Positions 18,537-59,010 of a stretch of 64,000 nt of DNA are shown one piece after another. The translations under genes were made by a program, and so were the position numbers. The DNA is from Pseudomonadota bacterium (GTDB taxonomy: Bacteria; Chloroflexota; UBA5177; JAJPKF01), in contig JAJPKF010000020.1 of the NCBI GenBank assembly GCA_021323865.1, positions 257,673 to 321,672 on the forward strand. The letters run 5' to 3'. How positions within the stretch are numbered: the first letter of the stretch is position 1; each line of letters begins with the position of its first letter. The notes below the pieces were generated by a model. It worked only from the letters and a program-made list of their open reading frames with translations, had not been told where the DNA came from and ran no database searches.

Positions 18537-18546
18537 CAAGGATGAC

Positions 18547-42733: not shown

Positions 42734-42816
42734 TCGCACAGACCCGACCCTGCGGCTTGGCAGCCGGCCGTGGGGCCTTGTGCAGAGCTGTCACCGCCGC
42801 AAGGATAGGCGGGTAG

Positions 42817-44535
42817 ATGGCGCCGAAGAGCCTAACGCTACTCGCCTTCGCCATCCATTGGGCTATGTCCGACGAGGCGCCGACCCGCAACTCTGAGTGG
42901 AGGGGAGCAGCCCTCCGGACACCGGTTGAGGCGGACGAGCTGAAGCGCTTTGGGGTGCTGCAGGGCGCGATGCATCTTCCCGCATCGCTACCAAATCCAG
43001 GCACATCACGGAGATCCCTGACGAACGCAGAAGCCCTGCCGGCCGGCGCCACACCTAAAAGCGTTGCGACATCCGCGCCGCGTCCGCGACTTCTGGCAAC
43101 TCCCCGCACCACCCGGTACAGCCGCGATTCGGTTCTGGCTCCCCTGGTCGTCGTGGCCGTCGCTTCCATCTGGGCAGTTCTCCAAAGGTTCGACGCTCAC
43201 TACATCTCCTTCTCGGATGGCGTCTACACCTATATCGCCGCAGCGGTGGCCCGATCAGGGCCTGCGATTCTCTACCACCGGGTGGTTCTGTCGCAGCCGC
43301 CCGGAGTCGTGCTCTTCGGCGCAATGATCTGGAGACTCTCCCCGGCCGTCTCGTCGATCCGGTTGGCCCTGGCGGCGCTGCTCGTCACTACGGGCCTGTT
43401 GACGTACGCGCTCGCGCGAGTGCTCGGCCTGGGACGGCCGGCCGCTGTGGTGGCGGCAGCGGTGGCCGTCACGGCGCCGCTTCGGGCGCAATACGGCGGA
43501 CTCGACGGCGAGGCCTTTCTGTCGCCTCTGGCGCTGGCGCTGACCATCCTCACCTCGCGTTCTCGCACGGGAGTGGCAGGCCTGCTCGTCGGGCTGGGGT
43601 TCCTGTTCAAGCTGACCTGGGCCCCATTCGCGTTGGCGGGGCTGGTTGCCATCGGGGCCGAGGCCGGTCCTCGCGCCGCGCTTCGCTCCGCCGGCCTGGC
43701 GTTCCTGAGCGCGTCGACGCTGGTTTCGATCGGCATCCTGGCATTCGGCTGGCACACGGGAGACATGCTGAAACAGGCGGTTCTGGGTGAATCCGGCAGC
43801 GGGCTGCAGTTGGCGCTCCTGCCCGGTATCCTGATCATCGTGGTTCTGAGCTGGTGGTCGCTGGGCATTCCCGCCATGGCCGGACGCTTCGCGCTTGACC
43901 GATCATCTCGCCTCATGGCGGTTGCCGGCTTGTTCTCGGGACTGCTCATGCTCAAGCAGGGCACCTTTCTCAACGTGCTCATCCCGCTCGAGCCGTTTGT
44001 GGCGATCGCCGCAGTCGCGGGCACTCTGCAGCTGTGGGGACGTGCCACTGCGCGAAGCCGGGCTCTCGCCGGCATCTGCATGGTGTTCGTCGTGCTGCAC
44101 ACCGTCAGCCTTGCCTCAGGTGCGGGACGGTCCGCCCTCCCCGTCCCCATCGGCGCCGCCATCCTCAACACGCATGACGGCGCTCAGATCGCGCGAGCCG
44201 CCGCAGCGGTCGATGCCGGCACCAAGCCAGGTCAACGAGTGTTCGTCAACCCGCTGATCGCCGTGGCCGCGCACAGACGGGAACTGGACGATCAAGCCGA
44301 TTGGTTCATCCTTCACGCAATGTCGCGATCCTGCCAAGGCCGTGGCGCACAGTGCACTGAGTGGAGACGGCTGGGCCGGGCGATTGCCGATGCAGAGCCC
44401 GCAGCCGTCGGCATCGACGCGAACGTCCGCAGCTTCGACCCCACCTTCGCCTCCGGCCTTCCTCGACGGCGCTATCGTGCGGCATTTCGGGTGGATGCTC
44501 CTCCGCTGCATACCGTGATCTACGTGGCTCGATGA
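42817..44535 (+). CDS. Large polytopic membrane protein, GT-C-like (DUF2029/mannosyl- or arabinosyl-transferase-like); real start probably ~43120
   Basis: 11 or more hydrophobic helices (VLAPLVVVAVASIWAVL ... ICMVFVVLHTVSLA) with acidic loop motifs. The first ~100 ORF-track residues are non-membrane and Ala/Pro-rich. Confidence 0.5.
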   Translation: MAPKSLTLLAFAIHWAMSDEAPTRNSEWRGAALRTPVEADELKRFGVLQGAMHLPASLPNPGTSRRSLTNAEALPAGATPKSVATSAPRPRLLATPRTTRYSRDSVLAPLVVVAVASIWAVLQRFDAHYISFSDGVYTYIAAAVARSGPAILYHRVVLSQPPGVVLFGAMIWRLSPAVSSIRLALAALLVTTGLLTYALARVLGLGRPAAVVAAAVAVTAPLRAQYGGLDGEAFLSPLALALTILTSRSRTGVAGLLVGLGFLFKLTWAPFALAGLVAIGAEAGPRAALRSAGLAFLSASTLVSIGILAFGWHTGDMLKQAVLGESGSGLQLALLPGILIIVVLSWWSLGIPAMAGRFALDRSSRLMAVAGLFSGLLMLKQGTFLNVLIPLEPFVAIAAVAGTLQLWGRATARSRALAGICMVFVVLHTVSLASGAGRSALPVPIGAAILNTHDGAQIARAAAAVDAGTKPGQRVFVNPLIAVAAHRRELDDQADWFILHAMSRSCQGRGAQCTEWRRLGRAIADAEPAAVGIDANVRSFDPTFASGLPRRRYRAAFRVDAPPLHTVIYVAR

Positions 44536-44710
44536 CTGCCATGCCCCTTCGCGATGATCGTCTCTCGCATCAGCTCGGCGTGTGAAGTGACCGGGTCTGT
44601 CGCATCGAGCACCGGTTTCGGCTAGAGTAGGACGCCGAGGCTGCCCGCCGGTATCGCCGGACGGTCCACTTCAATCGCTCGAAAGGAAGCTGGTAGCAGG
44701 TCGCCTTCGG

Positions 44711-46369
44711 ATGGGTCGGTCAATGGATTGGATGGGTAGCTCAGAAGACGCCCCCCGGGAGCGGCCGAAGGCGACGGCTGATACGACGACATCCCGGAGG
44801 GATCCGGAGGCGGCCCGACTACGCCTGGCCGACATTCTGGCCGCCCTGTCAATTTCCACGGATCTGGGGCATGGTCAAGCTCCTGAGACTGCGATGCGTG
44901 TCTGTGTTGTGGCCATGCGCCTGGCGGACCTCCTCGGTTTGAGTGCGGGCGACCGGGCTTGCATCTACTTCGCCGCCCTGCTGCGTCACATCGGCTGCAC
45001 CGCCTACGCCCACGAAGAAGCGGAGCTGTTCGCTGGTGATGAGATCTCGATACGCGGCGGCGTGGCGCCTCTCGACACCGCCAATCCACGGGAGATCGTC
45101 GGCTTTACGATTTCGAACGTCGGGTCTCACCTCGCGCCGTTGCCACGTGCTGTGGCGGTAGCGAAGGCGTTGACCCGCACGCCTCGAACCATGAGTGACC
45201 TCGCCGCGTCGAACTGCGAGGTGGGGTCGATGATGGCGCGCCGCCTCGATCTTCCGGACTCCGTACAGACCGCGCTGAATCAGGTCTATGAGCGTTGGGA
45301 CGGCAAGGGCTGGCCCCGGCGCCTCTCAGGCGAGGGTCTGTGCCTCGCTGTGCGCGTCGTTACGGTTGCGGACGCCGGCATTGCCCTGGTTGATGCTGCG
45401 GGCGTAGAGCCTGCTCGAGACGCGGTGGGCAGGCGTGCCGGAGGGATGCTCGACCCGGAGATCGCGGCCACCTTCTCGCATCATTGCTCGAGCATTCTGG
45501 AGCAGCCTCATGAGGAGGACACCTGGGAAACCGTACTGGCTTCTGAACCGGAGCCGTATCGCACTGCGGGTGAGACGCGGCTGGACGGCATCTGCCGCGC
45601 GTTCGCCGACATGGCCGACCTGAAGCTAACGTTCACGCGTGGCCACTCATCCGAGGTAGCACGCCTGTCGGCCGGCGCGGCCTCGCATCTTGGGCTGGAT
45701 CCGACCGAGGCGGCGAACGTAACGCGCGCGGCCTTCCTCCACGACCTGGGCCGTGTCGCCATTCCGAACGGTGTGTGGGAAAAGGCCGGCCGGCTTTCAG
45801 CCTCCGATTGGGAACGAGTGCGCCTCCATCCCTACTACTCCGAGCGAATCCTGTGTCGCTCGGGCGCGCTGGCCCACCTGGGTCCCATTGCCGGCATGCA
45901 CCATGAGCGGCAGGACGGCAGCGGATACCACCGCCAGCTCTCCAAAGCGGCGATACCACTGCCCGCGCGGGTCCTTGCGGCCGCGGATACATACCAGGCG
46001 CTGACGAGCGACCGGCCCTACCGCGTTGCGTGTGATGCGAGCGAGGCTGCTTTGATGATGGAAACGGAGGTGGCAGAAGGAAGGCTGGACGCGCAAGCGG
46101 TTGCCGCCGTGTTGACAGCCGCGGGCCATTCGAAGAAGACGCGATCGGCCTGGCCGGATGGTCTGACCGATAGGGAGGTGGAAGTCCTAAGGCTCATTGC
46201 CCGAGGCGCCTCGCAGAAGGAGGTTGGCCGTCAGCTGGTGATTTCACACCGTACGGCCGCCCACCACATCCAGCACATTTACGACAAGGTGGGCGTCGCC
46301 ACGCGGGCGGCGGCAGCCATGTATGCCATGGAGCATGATTTGCTGGCGGAAGCTCGCTGGCGACCCTGA
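44711..46369 (+). CDS. HD-GYP-type (GYP to GYH variant) phosphohydrolase-like domain(s) fused to a C-terminal LuxR-type HTH
   Basis: First HD-like region ...AALLRHIGCTAYAHEE. Second: HDLGRVAIP...RLHPYYSERIL...MHHERQDGSGYHRQL (HHExxDGxGYP consensus with P replaced by H). C-terminus REVEVLRLIARGASQKEVGRQLVISHRTAAHHIQHIYDKVGV is the LuxR/GerE HTH. Confidence 0.7.
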   Translation: MGRSMDWMGSSEDAPRERPKATADTTTSRRDPEAARLRLADILAALSISTDLGHGQAPETAMRVCVVAMRLADLLGLSAGDRACIYFAALLRHIGCTAYAHEEAELFAGDEISIRGGVAPLDTANPREIVGFTISNVGSHLAPLPRAVAVAKALTRTPRTMSDLAASNCEVGSMMARRLDLPDSVQTALNQVYERWDGKGWPRRLSGEGLCLAVRVVTVADAGIALVDAAGVEPARDAVGRRAGGMLDPEIAATFSHHCSSILEQPHEEDTWETVLASEPEPYRTAGETRLDGICRAFADMADLKLTFTRGHSSEVARLSAGAASHLGLDPTEAANVTRAAFLHDLGRVAIPNGVWEKAGRLSASDWERVRLHPYYSERILCRSGALAHLGPIAGMHHERQDGSGYHRQLSKAAIPLPARVLAAADTYQALTSDRPYRVACDASEAALMMETEVAEGRLDAQAVAAVLTAAGHSKKTRSAWPDGLTDREVEVLRLIARGASQKEVGRQLVISHRTAAHHIQHIYDKVGVATRAAAAMYAMEHDLLAEARWRP

Positions 46370-46542
46370 GCGCGCGGCTCCATCGGGACTACCGAATGCC
46401 CTCGAGCGGCGCCGGCCGGTTGACACGGCTCATCCGGGAAATGGGCCAAATGACCGATGAATCGAGGACTCATTTCCGCCTACGCTGGTCCTATGCGCAT
46501 CGAGACGATGTGGCAAATTCACGATGAGATAGGAGCAGAACA

Positions 46543-46977
46543 ATGTCGGAAGAGCAGAACGAGAAGGTCGTCAGGACGTGGCTGGAAGAGGCATGGAACA
46601 AGGGAAACATCGACGGGCAGGCTCGAATTCTTTCACCCTCTTACTCGTGGGACGGTCTGCCGCCGCCCTTCGGGACCGGTCCCCAGGGTTTGCTGAACTT
46701 CGTTCACGGCTTCCGGAGCGCCTTCCCTGATCTCCAATTCACCATGCAGGATCTGATCGCCAAGGGCGACAAGGTCGTCTGGCGGATCGAGGGGGGCGGA
46801 ACGCAGCGGGGTGAGTTCTTGGGTATCCCGGCGACCGGCCGGTCGTTCAAGGTCTCCGCGATCATCATTAGCCGCTTCGAGTACGGTCTGTGGCGCGAGG
46901 ATCACGTCTGTTGGGACCGACTGGGCATGCTGGAGCAGCTGGGTGTGATTCCGACGGCCGAGGGCACGGCAGCGTAA
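46543..46977 (+). CDS. SnoaL-like/NTF2-fold (ester-cyclase-like) protein
   Basis: EEQNEKVVRTWLEEAWNKGNIDG...RSAFPDLQFTMQDLIAKGDKVVWRIEGGGTQRGEFLGIPATGRSF. Confidence 0.65.
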   Translation: MSEEQNEKVVRTWLEEAWNKGNIDGQARILSPSYSWDGLPPPFGTGPQGLLNFVHGFRSAFPDLQFTMQDLIAKGDKVVWRIEGGGTQRGEFLGIPATGRSFKVSAIIISRFEYGLWREDHVCWDRLGMLEQLGVIPTAEGTAA

Positions 46978-47136
46978 CTGACGCGAGCTGGGTGAGCGGC
47001 CGTCCCGGTCTGCAGGACCCCGAAGCATGTCAGGGTGGTGAGATTCCATCGGGTCAGCAGCGGGTCGTCCTTGATCGCTCGCGATGGCTCAGGTTTCGCG
47101 GGCACCGGTGTCCGCGAGCCTGAGCCATTACTGCAT

Positions 47137-48099
47137 CTACCCGGGCTTGCGGCCAATCAATGCCACATATGCGTCGTCAGGCATCGGAGGTCGGTCCGTA
47201 TTCCCCTTAACGATCTCGATGTCTGTAAATCTGGCCAGCTCCAGCAGGAGGGCCAGCTCGTTCTTGAAGTACTCGTTCTCGGTGAGGTGGTGGTGTTCTT
47301 CCTGGACGACCGCTCCATCCCGATACAGACGTGCTTCTATTTCGAGGGTGATGCGCTGGTCCAGCGGATCTATGGCGGCGAGCCGCGCCCGCAGGTTCAG
47401 CTGTTCACCGTTCGCGGCCGTCTTTGGCTCTCCCCAGTCGGGATAGGGTCGAGGAAGCTGCTCTCGCTGCTGGGCCGGGTAGGCGTTCCACCAGCCAATG
47501 TTCATGTACGGCAGACACAGGTCGATGACGAGGGCTCCGCCGGGCTTGAGGTGACGGTACGCACGTCGAAGGGACTCCCGATCCTGCTCTCGGGTTGAGC
47601 CCAATCCAAACGCTCCGCATATAAGGATGGTGCGGTAGCGACGCGGCGTGTTCAGCTCGTGCATTGGTTGGACGTGCAGTCTACCGGTGGGAAGATGCCG
47701 GTTCAGAAGCTCGCGCCGGGAGAACTCGATCATGTCCGGCGAGACGTCGCAGCCGTCGACATCCAGCCCTTCGCCGCGGAGCGGGATGAGAAGCCTTCCC
47801 GACCCACATCCGAGGTCAAGAGCCGGCTCACCGAACCTCCGGACGGCCGAGCGCCAGAACCCGAGCTCCTCCGGTTCGGCACGGTTGAATTCGGCCCACC
47901 ATCTCGCAATGAGTCCGTAATGCCAAGTGGCAGGCTGCAGCGGGAGGGCCACTGCTCTCCTTCCCAACTGCTGGGGATTGGTCCGAGTTCTGGTCGTCAA
48001 GATAGTCCCCCCTGAATCCTCCGGCGCACTCGCGCCCCTCAGACGCCCTAGGGGCTCTATCCCGGGATAATCCGGCAGCCGGCCGAATGTATCCGGCAA
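47137..48099 (-). CDS. Class I SAM-dependent methyltransferase
   Basis: ALDLGCGSGRLLIPL (motif I), DVDGCDVSPDMIEFSR, LKPGGALVIDL. Confidence 0.75.
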   Translation of the reverse strand: MPDTFGRLPDYPGIEPLGRLRGASAPEDSGGTILTTRTRTNPQQLGRRAVALPLQPATWHYGLIARWWAEFNRAEPEELGFWRSAVRRFGEPALDLGCGSGRLLIPLRGEGLDVDGCDVSPDMIEFSRRELLNRHLPTGRLHVQPMHELNTPRRYRTILICGAFGLGSTREQDRESLRRAYRHLKPGGALVIDLCLPYMNIGWWNAYPAQQREQLPRPYPDWGEPKTAANGEQLNLRARLAAIDPLDQRITLEIEARLYRDGAVVQEEHHHLTENEYFKNELALLLELARFTDIEIVKGNTDRPPMPDDAYVALIGRKPG

Positions 48100-48117
48100 C
48101 TCGACCGCCCGCAGTGT

Positions 48118-48582
48118 CTAGGCAGCTTCCAAAGCCGCGATGTCGAGTTTCACCATGCCCATCATGGCTTTCATGCGGCGTTCGGCCCGGGCCGGGTCGG
48201 GAGGGCTCAGCAGCTCTCCAATGTTCTCGGGAACGATCTGCCACGAAAGGCCGAATCGATCCGTCAGCCAACCGCAGGCCACTTCGGTTCCCCCTTCCGC
48301 GGTCAGCTTGTCCCAGTAGTAGTCGATCTCCGCCTGGTCCTTACAGGCGACAGTGAAGGAAAAGGCGGGGGTCAGCTTCTGCTCGGGACCTCCATTGAAG
48401 AGCTGAATTTTCTGTCCTTCGATCTCCACTCGGGCCATCAGGACGCTCCCCTCCGGAAATGGCGCGCCGGGCCCCCAACGATCGACGCCGAGCGACCGTG
48501 CATTCTTGAAGACCGAGAGGTAGAGATTCATCGCCTCCTCGGCCTGGTTCTCAAACCACAGAAACGGCGTGACGGTAGGCAT
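48118..48582 (-). CDS. VOC-superfamily protein of the PhnB/3-demethylubiquinone-9 methyltransferase-like type
   Basis: MPTVTPFLWFENQAEEAMNLYLSVFKNA...QKIQLFNGGP...DRFGLSWQIV. Confidence 0.65.
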   Translation of the reverse strand: MPTVTPFLWFENQAEEAMNLYLSVFKNARSLGVDRWGPGAPFPEGSVLMARVEIEGQKIQLFNGGPEQKLTPAFSFTVACKDQAEIDYYWDKLTAEGGTEVACGWLTDRFGLSWQIVPENIGELLSPPDPARAERRMKAMMGMVKLDIAALEAA

Positions 48583-48853
48583 GACAGGCTCCTTCAGATT
48601 GATTCCCAGATTGTAGTCCTCAGGGCAGGCCCGACCTCGGCGACCTCATGCTCTCGTCTCTGTTCGGACAGTGTCCGCCTCGGCCGTATTCGCGGCATTT
48701 CCGCGGGCGTGTTTCGGCTGATTCGAGGGCCAGACTCCGGATGGGACAGGGGAAGGGATAGAGCCAAACGGTGGCGGCACAAGGTGTCATCCAGCGGTCG
48801 CAACATCGGCAGTCTACAATCCACTAATCCGCAGCCATGCTCGAGGTTCCCCC

Positions 48854-49336
48854 ATGCCGGATCCATCGGTCACTCATGTCACCTTTACGTTCGACCGGCT
48901 CTGCCAGGCTCGGGTGGAGCGGGTCTTTCAAGCCTTTGCCGACCCGCGACAGAAGACCCGCTGGCAGGACTCGCCGGAGGTTGAGCCGGCCGAGCCCGAC
49001 GCCGGAGACGACTACCTGGAGTTCGACTTCCGGGTCGGGGGCCACGAGCGCTTCGCCTTCAAGGTCGACGATGTGACCTACGAATATGACGCACAGTACT
49101 TCGACATTGTTCCCGACCGGAGGCTCGTGTACCGCTACGCGATGGCGGCCAACGGGCGGCCCGACTCGATGTCAATCGTCACGGTGGTCCTAACGCCGCA
49201 AGGGGAAAGGACGGCACTGAGCTACACCGAGCAGGGTACGTTCCTGGATGGGATCGACGACCCAGCCATCCGCGAGGCCGGGATCTCGGAGCTCCTCGAC
49301 AATCTGGTCACGTTTGTCTCGCTGCCGGTTCGCTAG
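48854..49336 (+). CDS. SRPBCC/AHSA1 (activator of Hsp90 ATPase homolog)-like protein
   Basis: VTFTFDRLCQARVERVFQAFADPRQKTRWQ...EFDFRVGGHERF. Confidence 0.6.
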   Translation: MPDPSVTHVTFTFDRLCQARVERVFQAFADPRQKTRWQDSPEVEPAEPDAGDDYLEFDFRVGGHERFAFKVDDVTYEYDAQYFDIVPDRRLVYRYAMAANGRPDSMSIVTVVLTPQGERTALSYTEQGTFLDGIDDPAIREAGISELLDNLVTFVSLPVR

Positions 49337-49574
49337 CTCCGAGCATGCCCTCCAGCGCAGAAGCGTGCCGAGGGCCATGGCAGGTGCTCGCACCGCAACT
49401 TTCACCGAAAGTTCAACAGGAAATCAGACTTTCGCAACCTTTGATTCTTATGACTGAAGATATGGCCTGGGTAGTGCCCAGACGACCCCAGGCAACAGAA
49501 CCCTGATTCGCGGGTGCGGCGGAGCCCAGTAGAGGCTCGCCGCGAGAAGCTCGGCGGACGGAGGAGCACCGAGC

Positions 49575-50324
49575 ATGCCCCTACTCCAGCGGACGGTCAT
49601 CGAAGCGGCCCCCACGGAGACAGAGGCGCCCTCGCGGCCGGAAGGCCGCGGCAAGTTCCTGTTCCAGGGGGCCGAGAAGCTCTACGTGCGCGGGGTAACG
49701 TACGGGACCTTTGCGCCGGGTCCGGACGGCTGCGATTATCCCGAACCCGCGACCGTTAAGAGCGACTTCCAAACCATGGCCGCCCGGGGCATCAATGCGG
49801 TGCGCACCTACACGGTCCCGCCTCGGTGGCTGCTCGACCTTGCGGAGCAGCAGGGGCTGCTCGTCATGGTCGGCATTCCCTGGGAACAACACGTCGCGTT
49901 TCTCGACGACCCGGCCATGGTGCGCCGAATCAGGGATCGGGTCCGCAGCGGTGTGGCGGCATGCGCAGGCCATCCAGCCGTACTTTGCTATGCCATCGGG
50001 AACGAGATCCCTGCCTCGATCGTGCGGTGGCACGGCCGGCGAAACATCGAGCGGTTCCTCAGGACCTTGTACCAAGTGGCGAAGAGCCAGGACCCCGATG
50101 CGCTGGTCACCTATGTCAACTTTCCCTCGACCGAATACCTACAGCTTCCCTTTCTCGATCTGGTCTGCTTCAATGTCTACCTGGAGTCCGACGAGGCCTT
50201 CGACGCCTATCTGCCTCGACTCAGCAATCTGGCCGGAAACAGACCCCTGCTCATGACCGAGATCGGGTTGGACAGCTCCCGTCATGGAGAGACCCGGCAA
50301 GCCCAGTTCTGGAATCCCAAGTGA
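49575..50324 (+). CDS. Cytoplasmic clan GH-A (TIM-barrel) glycoside-hydrolase-like protein
   Basis: FLFQGAEKLYVRGVTYGTFAP...GINAVRTY...YAIGNEIP (NEP-like acid/base)...PLLMTEIGLDS (TE nucleophile-like). No signal peptide. Stop TGA overlaps the GTG of the next gene. Confidence 0.65.
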   Translation: MPLLQRTVIEAAPTETEAPSRPEGRGKFLFQGAEKLYVRGVTYGTFAPGPDGCDYPEPATVKSDFQTMAARGINAVRTYTVPPRWLLDLAEQQGLLVMVGIPWEQHVAFLDDPAMVRRIRDRVRSGVAACAGHPAVLCYAIGNEIPASIVRWHGRRNIERFLRTLYQVAKSQDPDALVTYVNFPSTEYLQLPFLDLVCFNVYLESDEAFDAYLPRLSNLAGNRPLLMTEIGLDSSRHGETRQAQFWNPK

Positions 50325-52102
50325 GACGGGTCTTCGCCGCGGGTTTCGCCGGCGCTTTTGTCTTCTCCTGGACGGACGAGTGGTATCGGGGCGGAGCAGA
50401 AATCATGGACTGGGACTTCGGGTTGACAACCCGGAGGCGCAAGCCCAAGCCGGCCCTGACTGCGGTTTCTGCCTCCTTCGGACACATCCCCTTTCCCCCC
50501 GATGTCGCTTGGCCACGGATCTCGGTGGTCGTGTGCACCCACAACGGCTCACGGACGATTGGGGATTGTTGCGAGGGCCTGCTGCAGCTCGACTATCCAG
50601 AGTTCGAGGTCATCGTGGTTGACGACGGCTCAACCGACGGCGCTGCCGAGATCGTGGAGAGCTACGGGTTCCATGCGTTCAGAACCAGCAATCGCGGCCT
50701 GAGCGCAGCACGCAATACCGGCCTGCAGCTGGCAACCGGGGAGATCGTGGCCTATCTCGACGACGACGCGCGACCTGACCCCCAATGGCTTCGGTACCTG
50801 GCCTACAGCTTCATGACCTCGAATCACGCAGCCATCGGAGGTCCGAACATCGCGCCGTCCAGTGATGGTCCCATCGCACAGTGCGTGGCCAACGCTCCGG
50901 GCGGTCCGATTCACGTCCTTCTGACCGACCAAACCGCCGAGCACATACCCGGATGCAACTTTGCGGTTCGATCGTCATGTTTGCGGCAGCTACAGGGCTT
51001 CGATCGACGCTTCCGCGTCGCCGGTGACGACGTCGACATGTGCTGGCGGATCCAGGATGCCGGTTGGACCATCGGCTACAGTCCGGGTGCGATGGTTTGG
51101 CATCACCGCAGAAACTCCATCAAGGCCTACTGGAAGCAGCAGGTCGGCTATGGTCGGGCCGAAGCGCTGCTGGAAAGCAAATGGCCGGAACGGTACAACA
51201 CCTTCGGCCATGTGAGCTGGAAGGGCAGAATCTACGGCGCCGGTCCCACGCGCGCACTGCCTTCATTTCGTGCCCGAGTGTACGGAGGAGTGTGGGGGAC
51301 GGCGCCATTTCAGTCCATTTACGAACGGGTACCCGGCGGCCTGGGATCATTGCCCCTGATGCCGGAGTGGAATCTTCTGACGGTGTTCCTGGGCGGCTTG
51401 GGGCTGCTGGGTTTCCTCTGGCGGCCGCTGCTCGCGGTGCTGCCGTTGTTCGGGCTCGCCATCGGTATTCAGCTGCTGCAGTCGCTGCTGAGCGCCTCTC
51501 GGGCGTCGTTTCCGGCTACCGCCGGCCGCAGCAGGGGCGGCATGATCGCAATCACCACACTGCTCCATGTGCTGCAGCCGATGGCGAGGCTTTGGGGCAG
51601 ACTCCGCTACGGATTGACGCTATGGCGCCTCGGCTCGCGGGCGACACGGCACATATCTCCCGCGCTGCCCAGGCCGCGTCGGATCGACATATGGCGCGAG
51701 ACCTGGGAAGCGCCCGAGACGATGCTGACCAGCCTGGACTCCTGGGTCAGACGCCACGGCCTTCCCACCCGGTCAGGCGGTGGGTTTGACCGCTGGGACA
51801 TGCAGGTGTGCGCCGGCATCCTTGGCTGTGCCCGGCTGAGGATGGCCGTCGAGGAGCACGGTCAAGGCGCGCAGCTGTTCCGGTTTCGGGCCTGGCCCAT
51901 TCCCTCGGTCACGGGTCTGACGCTCATGGGAGTGCTCCTGTTCCTCTGCGCGGCAGCGGCGGTATCCGGCTCGGTGGTGGCGTCAGTCTGCCTGGCTGTC
52001 GTGCTGGCGTTTTTCCTCTTTCACATGGTTAGAGACCTGTCCTGCAGCATTGGATCGGTGCTTGCCGCGTTACACTCCGCCGCAGACCCCGAGCGGCGGT
52101 AG
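50321..52102 (+). CDS. Family-2 glycosyltransferase with C-terminal multi-helix membrane domain (GTG start in GTGA overlap)
   Basis: ISVVVCTHNGSRTIGDCCEGLLQLDYPEFEVIVVDDGSTDG...RGLSAARNTGLQLATGEIVAYLDDDARPD...GGPNI...CNFAVRSSCLRQLQGFDRRFRVAGDDVDMCWR gives the GT2 DxD/DDD plus a QxxRW-like region. Then four or more hydrophobic helices (LTVFLGGLGLLGFLW..., LTLMGVLLFLCAAAAVSG...). Confidence 0.75.
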   Translation: MRRVFAAGFAGAFVFSWTDEWYRGGAEIMDWDFGLTTRRRKPKPALTAVSASFGHIPFPPDVAWPRISVVVCTHNGSRTIGDCCEGLLQLDYPEFEVIVVDDGSTDGAAEIVESYGFHAFRTSNRGLSAARNTGLQLATGEIVAYLDDDARPDPQWLRYLAYSFMTSNHAAIGGPNIAPSSDGPIAQCVANAPGGPIHVLLTDQTAEHIPGCNFAVRSSCLRQLQGFDRRFRVAGDDVDMCWRIQDAGWTIGYSPGAMVWHHRRNSIKAYWKQQVGYGRAEALLESKWPERYNTFGHVSWKGRIYGAGPTRALPSFRARVYGGVWGTAPFQSIYERVPGGLGSLPLMPEWNLLTVFLGGLGLLGFLWRPLLAVLPLFGLAIGIQLLQSLLSASRASFPATAGRSRGGMIAITTLLHVLQPMARLWGRLRYGLTLWRLGSRATRHISPALPRPRRIDIWRETWEAPETMLTSLDSWVRRHGLPTRSGGGFDRWDMQVCAGILGCARLRMAVEEHGQGAQLFRFRAWPIPSVTGLTLMGVLLFLCAAAAVSGSVVASVCLAVVLAFFLFHMVRDLSCSIGSVLAALHSAADPERR

Positions 52103-52105
52103 CTC

Positions 52106-53866
52106 GTGAGCAACTACAGCGACTCTCTCCTCTATCGACGGTTGGCACGGCAGGCCCGGCCTTACTGGCCGCACATCGGGGGTCTGTTTCTGCTGAGCCT
52201 GCTGGCCACACCCATCGCGCTGCTGACTCCGCTGCCGCTCAAGATCGCGGTGGACAACATCGTCGGCCATCATCCCTTGCCGGGCTTCATCGCCTGGCTC
52301 ATCCCATCGGCCGTCGCGAGGTCTCACCTATCCGTGCTCGCATTGGCGGCGGTGATCTTCGTCGTGGTGGCCTTCCTCAATCAGCTCCAGCAATTGGCGA
52401 CCACCGCATTGAGCACCTATGCCGGCGAGAAGATGGTCCTCAGCTTTCGGGAGCAGCTCTTTCGCCAAGCCCAGCGCTTGTCACTGGCATATCACGACAT
52501 GAAGGGCACCACCGATTCCGTCTACCGCATACAGTACGACGCTCCCTCGATCCAGTGGATCGGCATTTACGGCGTCATCCCCTTCGTGTCCGCGCTCTTC
52601 ACGCTGGTGGGCATGTTTGTGGTGACCGTCCAGATCGACTGGGTCCTGGCCGTGGTGGCGATGACCGTATCTCCGGCGCTCTTCCTGGTGGCGCGTTCCT
52701 ACCGCCGGCGCCTCCGGGATCGCTGGCGCAACGTCAAGGACCTGGAGAGTTCTGCGATGTCGGTGGTGCACGAAGGGCTCTCGGCGATACGGGTGATCAA
52801 GGCCTTCGGGCAGGAAGACCGAGAGCAAAAGCGGTTCATCGAGCGTTCCGGCGCCGGCATGTGGGCCCGAATCCGGGTGACCATCATCGCCGGGTGGTTC
52901 GATCTGGCGATCTCCATGATTACCGCCCTGGGCACGGCGGCCGTTCTCTTTATCGGTATGCTTCACGTCGAGGCGCACATCATCACCGTCGGACTGCTGC
53001 TGCTGATCATGGGCTATCTGGTCGAGCTCTACGCACCGCTGCAGACGGTCAGCCAAAGCTTCGCCATGCTGCAGTCCTCCCTCGCGAGCGCGGAGCGAGC
53101 CTTCACCCTACTCGACCAAGCTCCCGATGTCGTGGAGAAGCCCCATGCGCGGCCGTTGATGCGGGCGCTGGGGGACATCAGCTTCGATGATGTTTGGTTC
53201 CGCTACGGCGAGGAACGCCCGGTTCTCAGCGCGGTGTCGTTTCACGTGGCGCCCGGAACCAAGGTGGGAATCGCGGGCGCGACCGGGGCCGGTAAGACCA
53301 CGCTGGTCAGCCTGCTCACCCGCTTCTATGACCCTACCCAGGGCTCGATCATGCTCGACGGCATTGATCTCCGTGATTACAAGCTCGCCGATCTCCGCAA
53401 TCAATTCGCCATCGTGCTCCAGGATCCAGTGCTCTTTTCGACCACCATCGCCGAGAACATCGCCTATGGGCGGCCCGATGCCCGGCCGGAGGAGATCATG
53501 GAGGCCGCACGGATGGCCAACATTCATGACTTCATCAGCAGTCTGCCGGAGGGCTACGAGACGCAGGTTGGAGAGCGCGGCATGCGCATGTCGGGCGGCG
53601 AACGTCAGCGCATATCGCTGGCCAGAGCGTTCCTCAAGGATGCGCCTATCCTGATCCTGGACGAGCCGACGAGCTCAGTGGATCTGCGAACCGAGGCTGC
53701 CATCATGGCAGACATGGAACGCTTGATGGAGGGCAAGACGGCGTTTCTCATCGCTCACCGGCTCTCAACCCTTTCGTCGTGTGACCTGCGCCTCGAAATC
53801 GACTCCGGGCAGCTCCGGTCTCAGAAGAGGGAAGTGACGCCCGATTCAGTGACCGTCGCGAGCTGA
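52106..53866 (+). CDS. ABC exporter, fused permease/ATP-binding (MsbA/lipid-or-glycan-flippase-like)
   Basis: Six-helix TMD. Walker A GATGAGKTT, signature MSGGERQRISLARAF, Walker B LILDEPTSSVD, H-loop AHRL. Confidence 0.85.
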   Translation: MSNYSDSLLYRRLARQARPYWPHIGGLFLLSLLATPIALLTPLPLKIAVDNIVGHHPLPGFIAWLIPSAVARSHLSVLALAAVIFVVVAFLNQLQQLATTALSTYAGEKMVLSFREQLFRQAQRLSLAYHDMKGTTDSVYRIQYDAPSIQWIGIYGVIPFVSALFTLVGMFVVTVQIDWVLAVVAMTVSPALFLVARSYRRRLRDRWRNVKDLESSAMSVVHEGLSAIRVIKAFGQEDREQKRFIERSGAGMWARIRVTIIAGWFDLAISMITALGTAAVLFIGMLHVEAHIITVGLLLLIMGYLVELYAPLQTVSQSFAMLQSSLASAERAFTLLDQAPDVVEKPHARPLMRALGDISFDDVWFRYGEERPVLSAVSFHVAPGTKVGIAGATGAGKTTLVSLLTRFYDPTQGSIMLDGIDLRDYKLADLRNQFAIVLQDPVLFSTTIAENIAYGRPDARPEEIMEAARMANIHDFISSLPEGYETQVGERGMRMSGGERQRISLARAFLKDAPILILDEPTSSVDLRTEAAIMADMERLMEGKTAFLIAHRLSTLSSCDLRLEIDSGQLRSQKREVTPDSVTVAS

Positions 53867-53870
53867 CGAA

Positions 53871-54884
53871 GTGCTTGCGCAAGAGGAGCTGTCGACTGCT
53901 GCCGCCCGGAGCGAGACACCTTCCGATCTGCCTACCGACGACGAACTTCTCTTCGGCCTAGCCATCGCTCTGTCGGAGACAGGGTCGAAGCCTCGGAAGC
54001 TGGAGCTGGTGGACCGAAGGCCCAATCCCGAAGCCTCCACCTTTGCCAGTGAGCGCATCACCTGCCGCGTCGACGGCACCGAGCTCCGTCTCTTCTGCAA
54101 GTACGCGGTGAGCCGGGTGGGAGAACCGGACCCGGCAGCGGGCCTCGCCTACGAGATCGCGGTCTACCGCTCGATCCTTGGCCATCTCAACCTCGCAACC
54201 CCGCGCTATTACGGATCGGTTGATCAGGGCGTCCCCTCGGCGCCCTGGCTGGTCGTGGAGTCGATCGAGGCTGCCCAATCGATTGACGTCATGGAGGGGA
54301 CGGAGGCGGTTTGCGCGGCCGCAAAGTGGATCGGAAACTTCCACCGCCTCATGGAATCATCCGGGAGCCGCTTCGACACCGGCTTTCTCAGTCAGTTCGC
54401 CGAGGCCGACTGCGTCGCGCCGCCGGAGTGGCTGGATCGTCTCAAACAGCTCCCTCGGGGGGCTGAGCCGGTTTGGTGGTACCGGCTGGTTCGGTATTTT
54501 CTGAGGCTGGCGCCGATCCTGGCGGAGGACGCGACGGTCATTCACGGCGACTATTACGGACCGAACGTGCTGTTCCAACAGGGCCAGGTACGTCCGCTTG
54601 ACTGGCATACGGCAAGGTCCGGTCCCGGCGTCATCGACCTGGCGATGCTGCTCGAGGCTCGCCCGAGCTCTCAAGTCGAACCGATCGTGTCGGCCTATCG
54701 TCTGGCCCGGTGGGGTGCAAACCCGCCGGCTGACCTCTTAGACAGATTGACTGCCGCTCGACTGTGGCTGCACTTCAGAACCGTCGGCGTTGTCTGGGTC
54801 CCCGGCCGCGGCAGGAAGTGGCGACTTGAGTCCCTGCGGGAGGAGGCACGCGAGTTGGGGTTTCTCCGTTCCTCGAATGGTTGA
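53871..54884 (+). CDS. Aminoglycoside-phosphotransferase (APH)/choline-kinase-fold phosphotransferase
   Basis: Brenner-type catalytic loop VIHGDYYGPNVLF and DWHTARSGPGVIDLAMLLE (DxxxxG). N-terminus LFCKYAV. Confidence 0.7.
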   Translation: MLAQEELSTAAARSETPSDLPTDDELLFGLAIALSETGSKPRKLELVDRRPNPEASTFASERITCRVDGTELRLFCKYAVSRVGEPDPAAGLAYEIAVYRSILGHLNLATPRYYGSVDQGVPSAPWLVVESIEAAQSIDVMEGTEAVCAAAKWIGNFHRLMESSGSRFDTGFLSQFAEADCVAPPEWLDRLKQLPRGAEPVWWYRLVRYFLRLAPILAEDATVIHGDYYGPNVLFQQGQVRPLDWHTARSGPGVIDLAMLLEARPSSQVEPIVSAYRLARWGANPPADLLDRLTAARLWLHFRTVGVVWVPGRGRKWRLESLREEARELGFLRSSNG

Positions 54885-55923
54885 GGCCAGCGCAGGTGCC
54901 GCTGGGGATCGAGGGGTGGCTGTTGCCGGGCACTCGAACTTGCGCCCGCCCTACCCGGCCGACTCAGCGCTGCGTGAAGGGCTCGAAGGTATTTTCCGGC
55001 GGGCCCGGCCCCATGCGCGACTGGAGATCGTGTCGAGGCAGCTAAATCCATTCACCAGCACCTTTGCCTCGGAGAAAGTGGTGTGTCGGGTCGACGGCGA
55101 GGTGGTTCGCCTGTTTTGCAAATACGGCACCGGCCGTAATGCCGCCGAGCAAGGGGCGGATCCCAAGCTGCTGGGCTACGAAACCGAGATATACCGCTCG
55201 GTGCTTCCGACACTACAAGTCTCGACTCCACTTTTTCATGGGGCTATCCTCTCGGGACTGCCGCATTCGCCCTGGCTTTTCATCGAGGATCTTGACGGCG
55301 CCACCCAGCTCGACAAGTCGCCAACGCTCGATGTCTATCTGCGGGCCGCGGCCTGGATCGCCCGGTTCCACGACGAATCTCGAGCGCTTCTCGATGACCC
55401 CCGAGCGCGCTTCATTCGCCGTTTCGTCCTCGACGACTATCTGGCTCCGATCGAGCCCATCGGATCCATGGATCTCTTCGGAGCCGAGGGCGACTGGCTG
55501 GGTGAGGTCATCGAGCGCTACTGCGATCTGGCGCCCATCCTCACCGACGATCCCGTGCTCACCCATGGCGAGTACTATCCGCAAAACATTCTGGTTCGGG
55601 GAGACCGGATCGCTCCGGTTGACTGGCAGGGTGCAAGGATCGGAGCGGCCGAGGTCGACCTGGCCATGCTCACGGACGCCTGGTCAAATCGACAGACCGC
55701 CCGGATGGTACAGCACTACCGCAGTGCGAGCCGGCAGAAGATGAGCGATGAATCATTCGAGCGCCGCTTCCTGGCCGCCCGGATCTACGTTCAGCTTTAC
55801 TGGCTCACGACCGAGCCGGGCCGGGTGCGCTTTCTTCGATCTGAAGCACGGCACCTCGGGGTGAAGGTGCCGAAGGCGCCACCTCGGCCAACCCGGCAGG
55901 GGCCGGGCAGGCCCGCGAGCTGA
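54877..55923 (+). CDS. Second APH-fold phosphotransferase, paralog of the upstream gene (ATG 54877 overlaps the upstream stop; ORF-track start 54790 is too early)
   Basis: LTHGEYYPQNILV and DWQGARIGAAEVDLAMLTD. Shares TFASE(R/K)(I/V)(T/V)CRVDG..(L/V)RLFCKY with its neighbour. Confidence 0.7.
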   Translation: MVEASAGAAGDRGVAVAGHSNLRPPYPADSALREGLEGIFRRARPHARLEIVSRQLNPFTSTFASEKVVCRVDGEVVRLFCKYGTGRNAAEQGADPKLLGYETEIYRSVLPTLQVSTPLFHGAILSGLPHSPWLFIEDLDGATQLDKSPTLDVYLRAAAWIARFHDESRALLDDPRARFIRRFVLDDYLAPIEPIGSMDLFGAEGDWLGEVIERYCDLAPILTDDPVLTHGEYYPQNILVRGDRIAPVDWQGARIGAAEVDLAMLTDAWSNRQTARMVQHYRSASRQKMSDESFERRFLAARIYVQLYWLTTEPGRVRFLRSEARHLGVKVPKAPPRPTRQGPGRPAS

Positions 55924-55924
55924 A

Positions 55925-57133
55925 ATGACCAAGCGCGTGATCGTGGTGCTTGGGGTTATGGCGGGTAATCCCTATGCCGGCATCGCCTGGCAATGCCTTC
56001 AATACCTGATTGGCCTGCGGCGTCTCGGCCATGAGGTCTACTACTTCGAAGTGTCCTCCGTGTGGCCGTACGATCCGAACCGTCGGAGTCCGGTGGACGA
56101 CTCCGCGTATCCACTGAGCTACCTCCAGAGGCTTGCGGCCGACTTCGATTTCCGTGGCCGCTGGGCCTACCGCCGGAGCTACTCCGATGGCGAGTGGTTC
56201 GGCCTGCCGAGGACGCGCGCCGAGGCCATACTTCGGGAAGCCGACGCCGTGCTCAACATCTCGGGCGCCACGGACGTTCGCGCCGAGGGCTTGAGCGAGA
56301 ATCTCATTCTCGTGGGAACCGATCCGGTCGTGGAGGAGGCCCGGTTGGCCGCCGGCATCGAGGACACAGCCTGCCATATCTCGGCGCACCGAGCCAGCTT
56401 CACCTTTGGCGAGAACATCGGGACCGACCGGTCGCCCGTGCCGGCCTTCCCCAATCTCGCCGGAACGACGCGCCAGCCCGTGGTTCTCGATTTCTGGGGA
56501 CCGCAAGGCGCTCCATCCCGGGATGTCTTCACGACAGTGGGCAACTGGCATCAGGAAGGCACGGAGATCGCATTCGGCGGCGAGACATACTTCTGGAGCA
56601 AGGATCGGGAGTTCCTAAGGTTCGTCGACCTGCCGCGGCGCCTCGGCATGCAGATAGAGCTGGCGACCACATTGGATCCCTCGGGCGAGCTGGAATCGCC
56701 TGGCAACGGCTCCCTTCCGGCCGGTGCCGGAACACCACGAGAGGTGTTGGAGAGCCATGGATGGAGGCTGATCGATGCCCTGGCCCTGACCGGCGATCCG
56801 TGGTCCTATCGCGACTACATCCGGGCCTCGAAGGGTGAGTTCACGGTGGCCAAGGACGCCAACGTCCGGCTCCGAACCGGCTGGTTCAGCGATCGCAGCG
56901 CCTCATACCTGGCCGCCGGACGGCCGGTCATCACCCAAGACACCGGCTTCGGCGACGTGCTCCCCACCGGCCGCGGTCTGTTCGCCTTTCGGTGCATGGA
57001 GGATATTCTGGCCGCCTTTGCCGCCATTCAAGCGGACTACGCCGAACACAGCCGCGCGGCGCGTGACATCGCCCAGCAGTATTTCCGTGCGGAGACCGTG
57101 CTGAGTCGCATGCTGGCCGACGCGGGCCTCTAG
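55925..57133 (+). CDS. Hypothetical protein, probably a GT-B-fold glycosyltransferase-like enzyme
   Basis: C-terminal SDRSASYLAAGRPVITQDTGFGDVLPTGRGLFAF resembles the GT1/GT4 donor-binding helix-loop. N-terminal VIVVLGVMAGNPYAGIAWQCLQYLIGLRRLGHEVYYFE is Rossmann-like. Not a confident family call. Confidence 0.45.
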   Translation: MTKRVIVVLGVMAGNPYAGIAWQCLQYLIGLRRLGHEVYYFEVSSVWPYDPNRRSPVDDSAYPLSYLQRLAADFDFRGRWAYRRSYSDGEWFGLPRTRAEAILREADAVLNISGATDVRAEGLSENLILVGTDPVVEEARLAAGIEDTACHISAHRASFTFGENIGTDRSPVPAFPNLAGTTRQPVVLDFWGPQGAPSRDVFTTVGNWHQEGTEIAFGGETYFWSKDREFLRFVDLPRRLGMQIELATTLDPSGELESPGNGSLPAGAGTPREVLESHGWRLIDALALTGDPWSYRDYIRASKGEFTVAKDANVRLRTGWFSDRSASYLAAGRPVITQDTGFGDVLPTGRGLFAFRCMEDILAAFAAIQADYAEHSRAARDIAQQYFRAETVLSRMLADAGL

Positions 57134-57958
57134 GTGCCCCGTAGTACCGCCGGTGAAGGGCGTGGCGATCTCCCTTCATCGGCTCCGGGCCGAACCTCTG
57201 TCGACGGAGCCGTGGCATTGGGAGAAGCAGCGCCCAATGTCGAGAGGCGCCTCATCGTCAACGCCGACGATTTTGGGCTCTCGCCGGGCGTGAACGAGGG
57301 GATTATCCGGTCTCATGAGGAGGGCATCGTTACCAGCGCCAGCCTCATGGTCCGTCAGGCGGCTGCAGCCGAGGCCGCGTCGTATGCACGCCGCTCCCCT
57401 CGTCTCAGTGTTGGCCTGCACCTTGACCTGGGAGAGTGGGAGTTTCGTGGCGCGGAGTGGAGGATCCGATATGAGGTGGTTCCGATGGATCAAAGCGAAG
57501 CGGTCGAGCGGGAGGTGGAGAGCCAGCTTGATCGGTTTCACGATCTCGTGGGCACGCATCCCACGCACATCGACAGCCACCAGCACATTCACCGAGACCA
57601 GCCCGCCCGCTCGGCGGTTCTCGCGGCGGCATCCGAGTTGAGAATACCGGTTCGGGACATGACCGAGGAGATTCGCTACCTCGGCGACTTCTACGGGCAA
57701 GACGATACGGGAAATCCGCTGCCGGAGCTGGTCAGCGTCGCGGCATTGGTGCGACGTGTCTCGGAGCTGCCCGCGGGTACCACCGAGCTGGGCTGCCACC
57801 CGGGCCTCGACGACAAGCTGCCCTCGGCCTACGGCCGCGAACGAGCCCTGGAGGTGGAGGCTTTGTGTAGTCGGGAGGTCAAGGCGGCGATCACGGAGGT
57901 TAATGTCTCCCTCATTTCCTTCCGCGACGTTGCGTGCTCGCCGTTGAGGGCCCGATGA
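57134..57958 (+). CDS. YdjC/ChbG/HpnK-family carbohydrate deacetylase; true start probably ~57240
   Basis: LIVNADDFGLSPGVNEGIIRSHEEGIVTSASLMV...VGLHLDLGEW...HIDSHQHIH has the YdjC conserved D and H motifs. Confidence 0.75.
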   Translation: MPRSTAGEGRGDLPSSAPGRTSVDGAVALGEAAPNVERRLIVNADDFGLSPGVNEGIIRSHEEGIVTSASLMVRQAAAAEAASYARRSPRLSVGLHLDLGEWEFRGAEWRIRYEVVPMDQSEAVEREVESQLDRFHDLVGTHPTHIDSHQHIHRDQPARSAVLAAASELRIPVRDMTEEIRYLGDFYGQDDTGNPLPELVSVAALVRRVSELPAGTTELGCHPGLDDKLPSAYGRERALEVEALCSREVKAAITEVNVSLISFRDVACSPLRAR

Positions 57959-58935
57959 AGATCCTCGTCACCGGGGGAGCTGGATACATCGGCAGCCATA
58001 CCTGCAAGGCGCTTGCGGCTGCCGGCATTGAGCCGGTCGCCCTCGACGACCTCAGCACCGGCTGGCGCGATCTGGTACGGTGGGGCCCCTTGGTCGAGGG
58101 AACCCTGGCCGATCGCGACTTCATCGCTTCGACGCTGCGGAAACACCACGTTGCCGGCGTCATCCACTTTGCCGCCAAGGCATATGTGGGCGAATCGGTA
58201 ACCAATCCTCGCGAGTACTTTCAAGCCAACGTCGTCAACACCCTCAACCTCTTGGCGGCGATGCTCGACGCGGGGGTCAGGCACATTGTCTTCTCGTCGA
58301 CGTGCTCCGTCTACGGCACATCCGCCGGTGTCCCCATACGCGAGGAAGAACCTCCGAAGCCGGTCAACCCATACGGGGAGTCGAAGCTCTTCGTCGAGCG
58401 CGTGCTGGGCTGGCACGAGCGCGCGTATGGCTTGAGCTGGATGGCACTGCGCTACTTCAACGCCGCCGGCGCGAGTCCGGATGGAGATATTGGGGAGAAG
58501 CATGAGCCCGAGACACATCTGATCCCGCTCGCGATCGCGGCCGCCCTGGGTGCAGAACGGCAGCTTGGCATCTTTGGAACCGACTACCCGACCCCCGACG
58601 GCTCAGCCGTTCGGGACTACATTCATGTCGACGACCTGGCAGCGGCCCATCTGCTGGCGCTCGAGCGTCTGCAGGGCGGGGGACAGAGTGGGCCGCTGAA
58701 TCTGGGGACCGGGAAGGGCCACTCGGTGCGCGAGGTGGTGCAGTCCGTCGAGAAGGTCAGCGGCCGAACGGTGCCGGTGGTCGAAATGGCGCGCCGTCCC
58801 GGAGACCCTGCGGAGCTGGTTGCCGACCCCAGCCGGGCGAGGGAACTTCTGGGCTGGGAGGCCAGGTATCAGGACCTCGACGGCATTGTCGAGAGTGCGT
58901 GGCGGTGGCAGAGCCGGGCAGAGCGCTCTGGCTAG
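57955..58935 (+). CDS. galE: UDP-glucose 4-epimerase
   Basis: MKILVTGGAGYIGSH (GxxGxxG), YGESK (YxxxK), NLGTGKGHSVREVV. ATGA overlap with the deacetylase gene. Confidence 0.85.
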   Translation: MKILVTGGAGYIGSHTCKALAAAGIEPVALDDLSTGWRDLVRWGPLVEGTLADRDFIASTLRKHHVAGVIHFAAKAYVGESVTNPREYFQANVVNTLNLLAAMLDAGVRHIVFSSTCSVYGTSAGVPIREEEPPKPVNPYGESKLFVERVLGWHERAYGLSWMALRYFNAAGASPDGDIGEKHEPETHLIPLAIAAALGAERQLGIFGTDYPTPDGSAVRDYIHVDDLAAAHLLALERLQGGGQSGPLNLGTGKGHSVREVVQSVEKVSGRTVPVVEMARRPGDPAELVADPSRARELLGWEARYQDLDGIVESAWRWQSRAERSG

Positions 58936-59010
58936 TCGCCAGCGAATCCAACGCCCCAAGTGAGCCTTCCCGTCGGCGCCCGGACGCTCATCTATCCCCG
59001 CCGCAGGAGT

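Follow-up and report, generated by a model that had tools for sequence, protein, structure and literature searches.

A one-nucleotide deletion probably divides a single glycosidase-GT2-membrane gene into two annotated reading frames

The locus at 49575-52102 was analyzed in a 64,000-nt stretch of contig JAJPKF010000020.1 from a soil bacterium (assembly GCA_021323865.1, deposited as a Pseudomonadota bacterium and placed by GTDB in the Chloroflexota), which is called the window below. It is annotated as two overlapping open reading frames (ORFs), one for a protein resembling glycoside hydrolases (GH) of clan GH-A and one for a glycosyltransferase of family 2 (GT2) with a C-terminal membrane module. 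Our reading, to which we give a probability of about 0.6, is that the two ORFs are one gene from which a single nucleotide is missing, and that the deletion is real in the sequenced population and recent. As read directly from the sequence, ORF A occupies 49575-50324 and encodes 249 aa with the C-terminus ...ETRQAQFWNPK, followed by the TGA at 50322-50324. N-termini of homologues line up with its ATG at 49575. The second frame (frame B), which is -1 relative to ORF A, opens with the GTG at 50321 (VRRVFAAGFAGAFVFSWTDEWYRGG...) and runs for 593 codons to the stop at 52100-52102. The stop codon of ORF A and the GTG of this GT2 ORF (ORF B) overlap in the tetranucleotide GTGA; this overlap and the ORF coordinates, given in a preliminary description of the stretch, were borne out by the sequence. 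Since frame B has no stop codon back to 49826, GTG 50321 is merely the start that gene callers chose. It was used in the NCBI and JGI calls, and the call on a Logan contig begins at ATG 50405 (position 10831 of that contig, L002). In the case of ORF A alone, PF02836 (the GH2_C TIM barrel) was matched over profile positions 37-213 of 302, and in the search of a library of representatives the matches never reached beyond residue 246. ORF B contains PF00535 (GT2) at aa 68-220, preceded by about 60 N-terminal residues that have no Pfam assignment. The features of the locus and of the genes downstream are collected in Table 1, with residues numbered along the restored protein described below.

Table 1. 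Features at the GH-GT2 locus and in the downstream cluster, in window coordinates (SD, Shine-Dalgarno sequence; ABC, ATP-binding cassette; TMD, transmembrane domain; NBD, nucleotide-binding domain).
Feature	Position	Strand	Basis or remark
SD-like GGAGGAG	49560..49566	+	8 nt 5' of ATG 49575
Residues 1-244: clan GH-A (beta/alpha)8 barrel from beta1 to the first half of alpha7	49575..50306	+	PF02836; AlphaFold2 secondary structure
Acid/base motif N143-E144 (predicted)	E144 = 50004-50006	+	Conservation in 119 sequences
Nucleophile E229 (predicted)	50259-50261	+	Conservation; alignment with LaGH157 E224
Frameshift site CAGTT, 5 nt in place of two codons	50304..50308	+	Gapless homologue alignment
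Out-of-frame tail FWNPK and TGA of ORF A	50307..50324	+	Sequence; representative search
Residues 246-303: second half of alpha7, beta8 (AFVF, then WTDEW motif), alpha8	50309..50482	+	AlphaFold2; Pfam
GTG, annotated start of the 593-aa "GT2 gene"; codon of conserved V/I250, without SD	50321..50323	+	
GGAG (50393-50396), 8-nt spacer and ATG (50405-50407, M278); possible internal start	50393..50407	+	Sequence
GT2 (GT-A fold) domain, residues 314-545	50513..51208	+	PF00535, PF13641, PF13632; invariant columns; Foldseek GT2 matches
C-terminal membrane module, residues 589-842, then stop	51338..52102	+	AlphaFold2; hydropathy; K+R count
MsbA-type ABC exporter (fused TMD and NBD), conserved partner	52106..53866	+	Pfam
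Two APH-fold phosphotransferase genes, accessory	53871-54884 and 54826-55923	+	PF01636
Conserved 402-aa protein (U402)	55925..57133	+	Homologue in 51/80 loci
YdjC-type carbohydrate deacetylase, accessory	57134/57218-57958	+	Pfam, NCBIfam
NAD-dependent sugar epimerase, accessory	57934/57955-58935	+	Pfam, NCBIfam

Restoring one base within CAGTT joins the two frames into a protein of 842 aa. In the sequence used here, frame A is read through CAG 50304-50306, one placeholder residue is added, and frame B is read from CTG 50309. The homologue search covered 5.8 billion proteins and returned thousands of matches. Apart from the window's own 593-aa entry, 118 full-length homologues were listed, and all of them are single polypeptides of 794-930 aa that contain PF02836 as well as PF00535. 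Their coverage of the restored query is 90-100%, and their identity in the alignment is 56-60%. The 119th match, P0019 (1467 aa), has the same architecture. In the restored protein, the GH2_C match grows to profile positions 37-294 of 302 and extends to residue 299.

When both ORFs were aligned to the GH-GT2 fusion proteins, the junction was gapless across the homologues, with exactly two variable residues between the anchors of frame A and those of frame B. In frame A, Q242 is invariant and A243 is present in 115 of the 118 homologues; in frame B, the anchors are L246 (114 of 118), the invariant Q249, and R251. Because these anchors flank two variable residues, CAGTT stands in place of six bases. 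The commonest residue at position 245 is V (50/118 homologues), which makes CAG GTT (Q-V) the simplest restoration; judged from the alignment, it is the likeliest original, with one G lost. A different placement of the shift, in which frame A is kept through TGG (W), loses the nearly invariant L246 and was rejected. The shift had earlier been placed at about 50320, and this position has to be corrected: it lies at 50304-50308, between the codons of A243 (frame A) and L246 (frame B), 13-17 nt upstream. Two residues of frame B near the junction set the window apart from its relatives. W248 is conserved in 113 of the 118 homologues, and the window has Ser (TCC) at 50315-50317. Methionine at position 278 is found in 0/118 homologues, most of which carry E (71) or D (21).

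The genome scan, with one genome per species, yielded 293 stretches that encode relatives, and 80 loci were kept, none of them from the window's own genome. In all 80, a single tblastn high-scoring segment pair spans residues 200-330 and thus crosses the junction. The loci come from more than 12 phyla and include members of Binatia, Desulfobacterota, Acidobacteriota, Chloroflexota, Gemmatimonadota, Rokubacteria, Nitrospirota, Planctomycetota, Actinomycetota, Bacteroidota, Verrucomicrobiota, Gammaproteobacteria, and Eremiobacterota. The window copy shares with this family the full-length homology and the neighbouring genes, and it has a 1-nt gap where the family has one uninterrupted ORF. The preliminary description had offered two readings of the locus, of which it favoured the first given here. 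A frameshifted single GH-GT2-membrane polypeptide agrees with the 118 of 118 homologues that are single and with the 80 of 80 loci that read through. Translationally coupled partners do not, since the homologues are never separate and the GH barrel is incomplete before the stop of ORF A, where it is cut in alpha7. The homologues show the reverse of the pattern that had been named as refuting a single gene, namely two genes apart in every homologue and a GH domain finished ahead of its stop.

The cut was located on an AlphaFold2 model of the restored protein, built with 119 sequences (predicted local distance difference test, pLDDT, 87.6; predicted template-modelling score, pTM, 0.87). In this model, the barrel elements include beta1 (38-42), beta4 (136-143), beta7 (225-230), alpha7 (239-255), beta8 (260-263), and alpha8 (293-303), and the break at residues 244/245 falls in the middle of alpha7. 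Of the eight beta/alpha units, seven thus belong to ORF A; ORF B opens with half of alpha7 followed by beta8 and alpha8, and it takes the restored protein to give a full barrel. The first 60 residues of ORF B reached a pLDDT of 45-70 when modelled alone and 88-98 in the fusion (means of 10-residue blocks). The suggestion that the roughly 60 residues of frame B before the GT2 fold are the last beta/alpha unit of the TIM barrel was supported by the model, which puts beta8 and alpha8 in the first ~55 residues of ORF B and, for the joined translation, the junction inside alpha7 of a complete barrel. The GTGA overlap is an accidental by-product of the frameshift and not a designed coupling signal, because its GTG is the codon of the conserved V/I250 and has no SD. 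It should not be read as operon design. The 249-aa and 593-aa coding sequences on record are fragments of one gene, and their annotation should mark them as a pseudogene or a frameshifted gene.

The frameshift was found in more than one assembly. The JGI metagenome contig Ga0070739_10002127, from sample 3300005532, matches window 46474-60324 (13.9 kb) with 100% identity and includes the frameshift. An independently assembled Logan contig of SRR5579884 matches window 39574-51859 and has the same frameshift; the sole difference over this interval is an intergenic TTT at 46473 in the window, which is TT in the Logan contig. Database records place ORF A on contigs of 335,051 nt (NCBI/ENA) and 336,608 nt (JGI) as well; for the 593-aa product, the corresponding look-up gave no contig. 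Two scans of a JGI metagenome collection in which this contig is absent, one for the junction with a gap of variable length and one for the flank downstream, returned no intact or alternative allele. At the frameshift site, homopolymers are no longer than 2 bases. A Pfam scan of about 20 further window ORFs gave no match for some of them, and none of the matched ones has a truncated main domain. Among the 253 alignment columns that are at least 95% conserved, the restored protein departs at three (W248S, F502Y, and L743M, leave-one-out count), and the homologues depart at a mean of 4.1 of those columns (standard deviation 2.4). Beyond the indel, the rest of the gene is without decay. The junction shared by the assemblies, the lack of a homopolymer, and the intact rest of the gene together argue that the frameshift is not an assembler artefact and that the event is recent.

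Several points weigh against this reading. The support is at the level of assemblies, not reads, and since these assemblies may go back to one sample or to sister samples, the junction may yet reflect a systematic error or a mix of minority and majority alleles. The undecayed state of the gene is equally compatible with a sequencing error and with a recent mutation. M278, an ATG with a GGAG SD, is unique among the 119 sequences, and W248S is only 3 residues from the shift; together they could hint at adaptation to the split state instead of simple loss. Moreover, the biochemical function of the family is wholly inferred, with an identity to GH157/158 of only ~19-21%. The first of these doubts leads to the explanation that the organism has an intact gene of 842 codons and that one base was lost in the reads or the consensus. 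Such an artefact would agree with the otherwise undegraded gene and with the abundance of frameshifted chimeras among metagenome-derived representatives (65 of the top 150); high-GC assemblies are often affected by indels, and every record of the contig may trace to one sample series. We nevertheless consider it unlikely, as the junction is identical in the JGI and the independent Logan SRR5579884 assemblies, ORF A occurs in contigs of 335 and 337 kb, the site is not a homopolymer, and the main domains of the other Pfam-matched window genes are untruncated. Consensus indels are also rare in short-read data, and the JGI data of this series are short-read.

A genuine split that the cell tolerates is decidedly improbable in view of the 0/80 homologue loci that are split. 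It would require two subunits, made either through reinitiation at GTGA after termination or from an internal start at ATG 50405, and in addition either a barrel that reassembles without a covalent link or a GT2-membrane half that functions in the absence of the GH domain. The cut lies inside a helix and not at a domain boundary, ORF A carries five junk residues, and the barrel segment left at the N-terminus of ORF B is, by prediction, disordered when it stands alone. The GTGA stop/start overlap speaks for such an arrangement, but its GTG has no SD and is simply the V250 codon. Another candidate start is ATG 50405, with its GGAG SD at 8-nt spacing and a Met absent from the 118 homologues, although a single unique Met may be chance. 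The lack of downstream decay and the intact partner genes are likewise in its favour, and (beta/alpha)8 barrels are sometimes reconstituted from fragments. Finally, programmed -1 ribosomal frameshifting or transcriptional slippage could restore the full-length protein: a -1 slip after CAG, with G50306 re-read in GTT, would give the right length and the commonest residue, V245. We regard this as extremely improbable, given that 50295-50324 contains neither an X XXY YYZ heptamer nor an A/T run, that shuffled sequences fold as well as the 126 nt downstream (z = 0.03), that none of the 80 genome homologues is shifted, and that the breaks in other frameshifted database entries are scattered, without a fixed site.

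These other entries were found among the representatives of the 50%-identity library, 65 of the top 150 of which have non-homologous tails, with breaks at positions 157-780. In chimeras such as P0129, P0137, P0171, P0198, P0205, P0206, P0230, and others, the tails are off-frame readings of the same gene. High GC keeps wrong frames open. These chimeras seed their own 50% clusters and inflate the apparent diversity. A conserved frameshift hot-spot was also considered, as nine of the 65 chimeras break at 241-250, but the query ended at 244, which biases the count, and the breaks span the whole range given above; the idea was rejected. As for the assemblies of the window itself, the JGI contig (L001) begins exactly at 46474, next to the TTT/TT difference at 46473, which suggests strain heterogeneity or an assembly break at 46473/46474.

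If the deletion is real and recent, the product of ORF A would be a barrel without beta8 and alpha8, probably inactive or unstable. The GT2-membrane half would be made only via reinitiation at GTG 50321, which has no SD, or at ATG 50405, which has the GGAG SD. From the truncated barrel and the dependence of the GT2 half on reinitiation, we infer that the locus is either a hypomorph or a pseudogene of recent origin. As a finding on this genome, a defective gene of that kind (or, with lower probability, a sequencing error) that is annotated as two coding sequences is ordinary. What the locus points to is wider, namely a large family in more than 12 phyla with a GH-A domain that is predicted to be catalytically equipped and to lie on the same side of the membrane as the GT2 domain.

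The best relatives of the GH domain in the PDB, by sequence and by fold, are GH157 (LaGH157; 9fz9, 9g4n, and 9g5g) and GH158, followed by GH2 glucuronidases and GH5_18. The matched GH157 and GH158 structures were solved with laminari-oligosaccharides, those of LaGH157 with laminaribiose or laminaritriose. The identity to GH157/158 is about 19-21%. For GH157, phmmer gave E = 1.8e-8 over 243 residues at ~19% identity, and GH2 was nearly equal at E = 4.5e-8; Foldseek placed GH157, GH158, GH2, and GH5 at E of about 1e-13 to 1e-14 (best 1.2e-14). The family motifs IGNE and (A/T)EIG align with VINE and TTEFG of LaGH157, and E229 aligns with LaGH157 E224, the residue mutated in PDB 9g4n. Across the 119 sequences, neither E144 nor E229 varies, and N143 reaches at least 90% conservation. 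The domain thus has the characteristics of clan GH-A, that is, the (beta/alpha)8 fold, an N-E acid/base motif after beta4, and a nucleophile Glu after beta7. Based on the fold relatives, the aligned motifs, and the invariant E144 and E229, the GH domain of the family looks like an active retaining clan GH-A enzyme.

The GT2 domain scored 105 bits with PF00535, against a gathering cut-off of 23.3, and contains a DxD motif, the two features taken here to define an inverting GT-A enzyme of this family. Its motifs are D351, DDD 396-398 (50759-50767), GDD 484-486, and QQxGY 522-526; D396 and D398 never vary, and D397 is conserved to at least 90%. The best NCBIfam scores, 161 bits for MftF and 119 bits for EpsD, are both below the cut-offs. 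Foldseek returned generic GT2 folds only (TM-score normalised to the query no higher than 0.38) and no close structural match for the C-terminal membrane module. According to the AlphaFold2 model, this module consists of a transmembrane (TM) hairpin at 598-641, a long helix at 654-678 that looks amphipathic by sequence, a small alpha/beta domain at 702-777, and a second TM hairpin at 779-826. Hydropathy analysis found no segment before residue 598 that is hydrophobic enough for a signal peptide or a TM helix. The loop between TM2 and TM3 is rich in K and R (21 K+R), and application of the positive-inside rule to it predicts that the GH and GT2 domains both face the cytoplasm. A processive membrane GT2 synthase of the BcsA/HAS/chitin synthase/NodC type is not supported, because the motif is QQxGY and not Q(Q/R)xRW, and because there are two C-terminal TM hairpins and none before GT2; superposition on BcsA was poor (root-mean-square deviation 28 A). 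The earlier label "processive-type" for this enzyme, with only four C-terminal TM helices, is for the same reasons not retained. MftF, EpsD, and the PgaC/NodC-type GT2 enzymes share with it the GT-A fold, DxD, and the acidic GDD, and differ from it in the QQxGY motif, which replaces Q(Q/R)xRW, and in that its scores are below their family cut-offs.

The family thus combines a GH157/158/GH2-like domain, predicted to be cytoplasmic, with GT2 and four C-terminal TM helices. No NCBIfam model covers the whole protein, the names in databases are generic ("GT2 family glycosyltransferase", "O-antigen biosynthesis protein"), and literature searches found no description of a GH-A/GT2/4-TM fusion family. 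As far as we found, a cytoplasmic GH-GT2 architecture with an exporter and U402 is uncharacterised. In the GH157 (LaGH157) and GH158 endo-beta-1,3-glucanases and the GH2 beta-glucuronidases, the same (beta/alpha)8 fold, NE acid/base, and TE(I/F)G nucleophile are found; these enzymes are stand-alone degradative hydrolases, whereas the window domain lacks a signal peptide and forms part of a synthase fusion.

Two known systems offer an analogy for the function of the family. In the cyclic beta-1,2-glucan synthase Cgs/ChvB, one membrane-bound cytoplasmic enzyme joins a glycosyltransferase domain to glycan-processing domains, and the product is exported by ChvA/NdvA, an MsbA-type transporter with fused TMD and NBD. 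The window cluster resembles this system in joining a glycosyltransferase to glycan processing and in its MsbA-type exporter, which scored 336 bits with the glucan-exporter model. It differs in that Cgs has GT84 and GH94 domains, without sequence relation to the window family. The other system is NdvB, the cyclic beta-1,3-glucan synthase of pseudomonads and Bradyrhizobium, in which GT2 is proposed to make linear beta-1,3-glucan and a periplasmic GH17 to cleave and cyclise it by transglycosylation (PMC10237404). NdvB also carries an N-terminal clan GH-A TIM barrel and GT2 on one polypeptide, but its GH17 is periplasmic, behind a signal peptide, and a BcsA-like TM channel lies between it and GT2 (PMC10237404). 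In the window family, the GH domain is of the PF02836 type and is predicted to lie, like GT2, in the cytoplasm; the TM hairpins at the C-terminus number only two, and a separate ABC transporter apparently takes over export. An NdvB-type synthase was therefore rejected as a candidate: the Pfam match is PF02836, GH17 (PF00332) is not listed, and no hydrophobic segment precedes residue 598. The family may accordingly be described, by analogy, as the domain pairing of NdvB with the topology and export logic of Cgs/ChvA. The pairing of a hydrolase with GT2 had been called unusual; this does not hold, as the GH domain alone recovers 510 clusters (50% identity) at E<=1e-30, and NdvB is a precedent for GH-A with GT2 (PMC10237404).

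By analogy with NdvB and Cgs/ChvA, we propose that in intact members of the family GT2 would assemble a beta-linked glycan, an oligo- or polysaccharide, on the cytoplasmic side of the membrane. Trimming or transglycosylation by the retaining GH-A domain would control the length, branching, or cyclisation of this glycan, and the MsbA-type ABC exporter would carry it to the other side. A beta-1,3-glucan product is hinted at by the resemblance to GH157/158, and N-acetylhexosamine (HexNAc) chemistry by the accessory YdjC and epimerase genes. A broader proposal is that a protein with a GH157/158-like transglycosylase or trimming domain and GT2, the exporter, and U402 form a system in many phyla that makes and exports a new class of oligosaccharide or glycolipid, and that in the window the split is tolerated by means of a lineage-specific M278 ATG with its GGAG SD, from which the GT2-membrane half would be produced separately; taken as a whole, this is quite unlikely. 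The product of that system might be cyclic or decorated, since some relatives adjoin NodS-, NodE/F-, NodH-, or NodL-like, YdjC, or kinase genes. The cultured carriers Desulfoferrobacter suflitae DRH4 and Haliea sp. E17 would permit a direct test of the polymer made.

In the case of the downstream genes, a homologue of the ABC exporter was found in 68 of the 80 loci, and in 50 it follows on the same strand at a distance of no more than 400 nt. P0019 joins all three, GH, GT2, and the ABC protein, in a natural triple fusion. The window ABC protein is below every NCBIfam cut-off, including those for the glucan exporter (336 vs 733 bits) and MsbA (404 vs 602 bits). U402 is probably the third core component. 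It gave no match in Pfam, NCBIfam, or the PDB, except for a faint one to Glyco_trans_1_2 (E = 0.0078). The remaining genes are less widespread: homologues of the YdjC deacetylase and of the sugar epimerase were each found in 16 of the 80 loci, and those of the APH-fold kinases in 7-9.

Other observations concern the gene neighbourhoods of relatives. In the Acidobacteriota locus of P0087 (L006/L007 12592-22583), the GH-GT2 gene is followed by genes for an acyl carrier protein, a ketoacyl synthase, a protein with a faint sulfotransferase-family match, two hexapeptide acyltransferases, and a GT4. In another locus (L005 8904-21222), a NodS-like methyltransferase, a YdjC, and a PMT_2 gene follow it. 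These genes recall the decoration of Nod factors and suggest that the product is a decorated or lipidated oligosaccharide. In D. suflitae DRH4 (L004 12997-15371), a GH65 phosphorylase beside GH-GT2 is called as two ORFs (501 + 293 aa) with a 13-nt overlap, and this pair may be another split or frameshifted glycan enzyme. Elsewhere in the window, 4116-7786 contains two tandem MsbA-type ABC half-transporter genes (each TMD-NBD) that are unrelated to the GH-GT2 cluster. At 17292-26111 there are seven same-strand ORFs of ~400-456 aa with coding-type GC content at the third codon position; the three that were scanned gave no Pfam match, and the run may be an array of paralogues.

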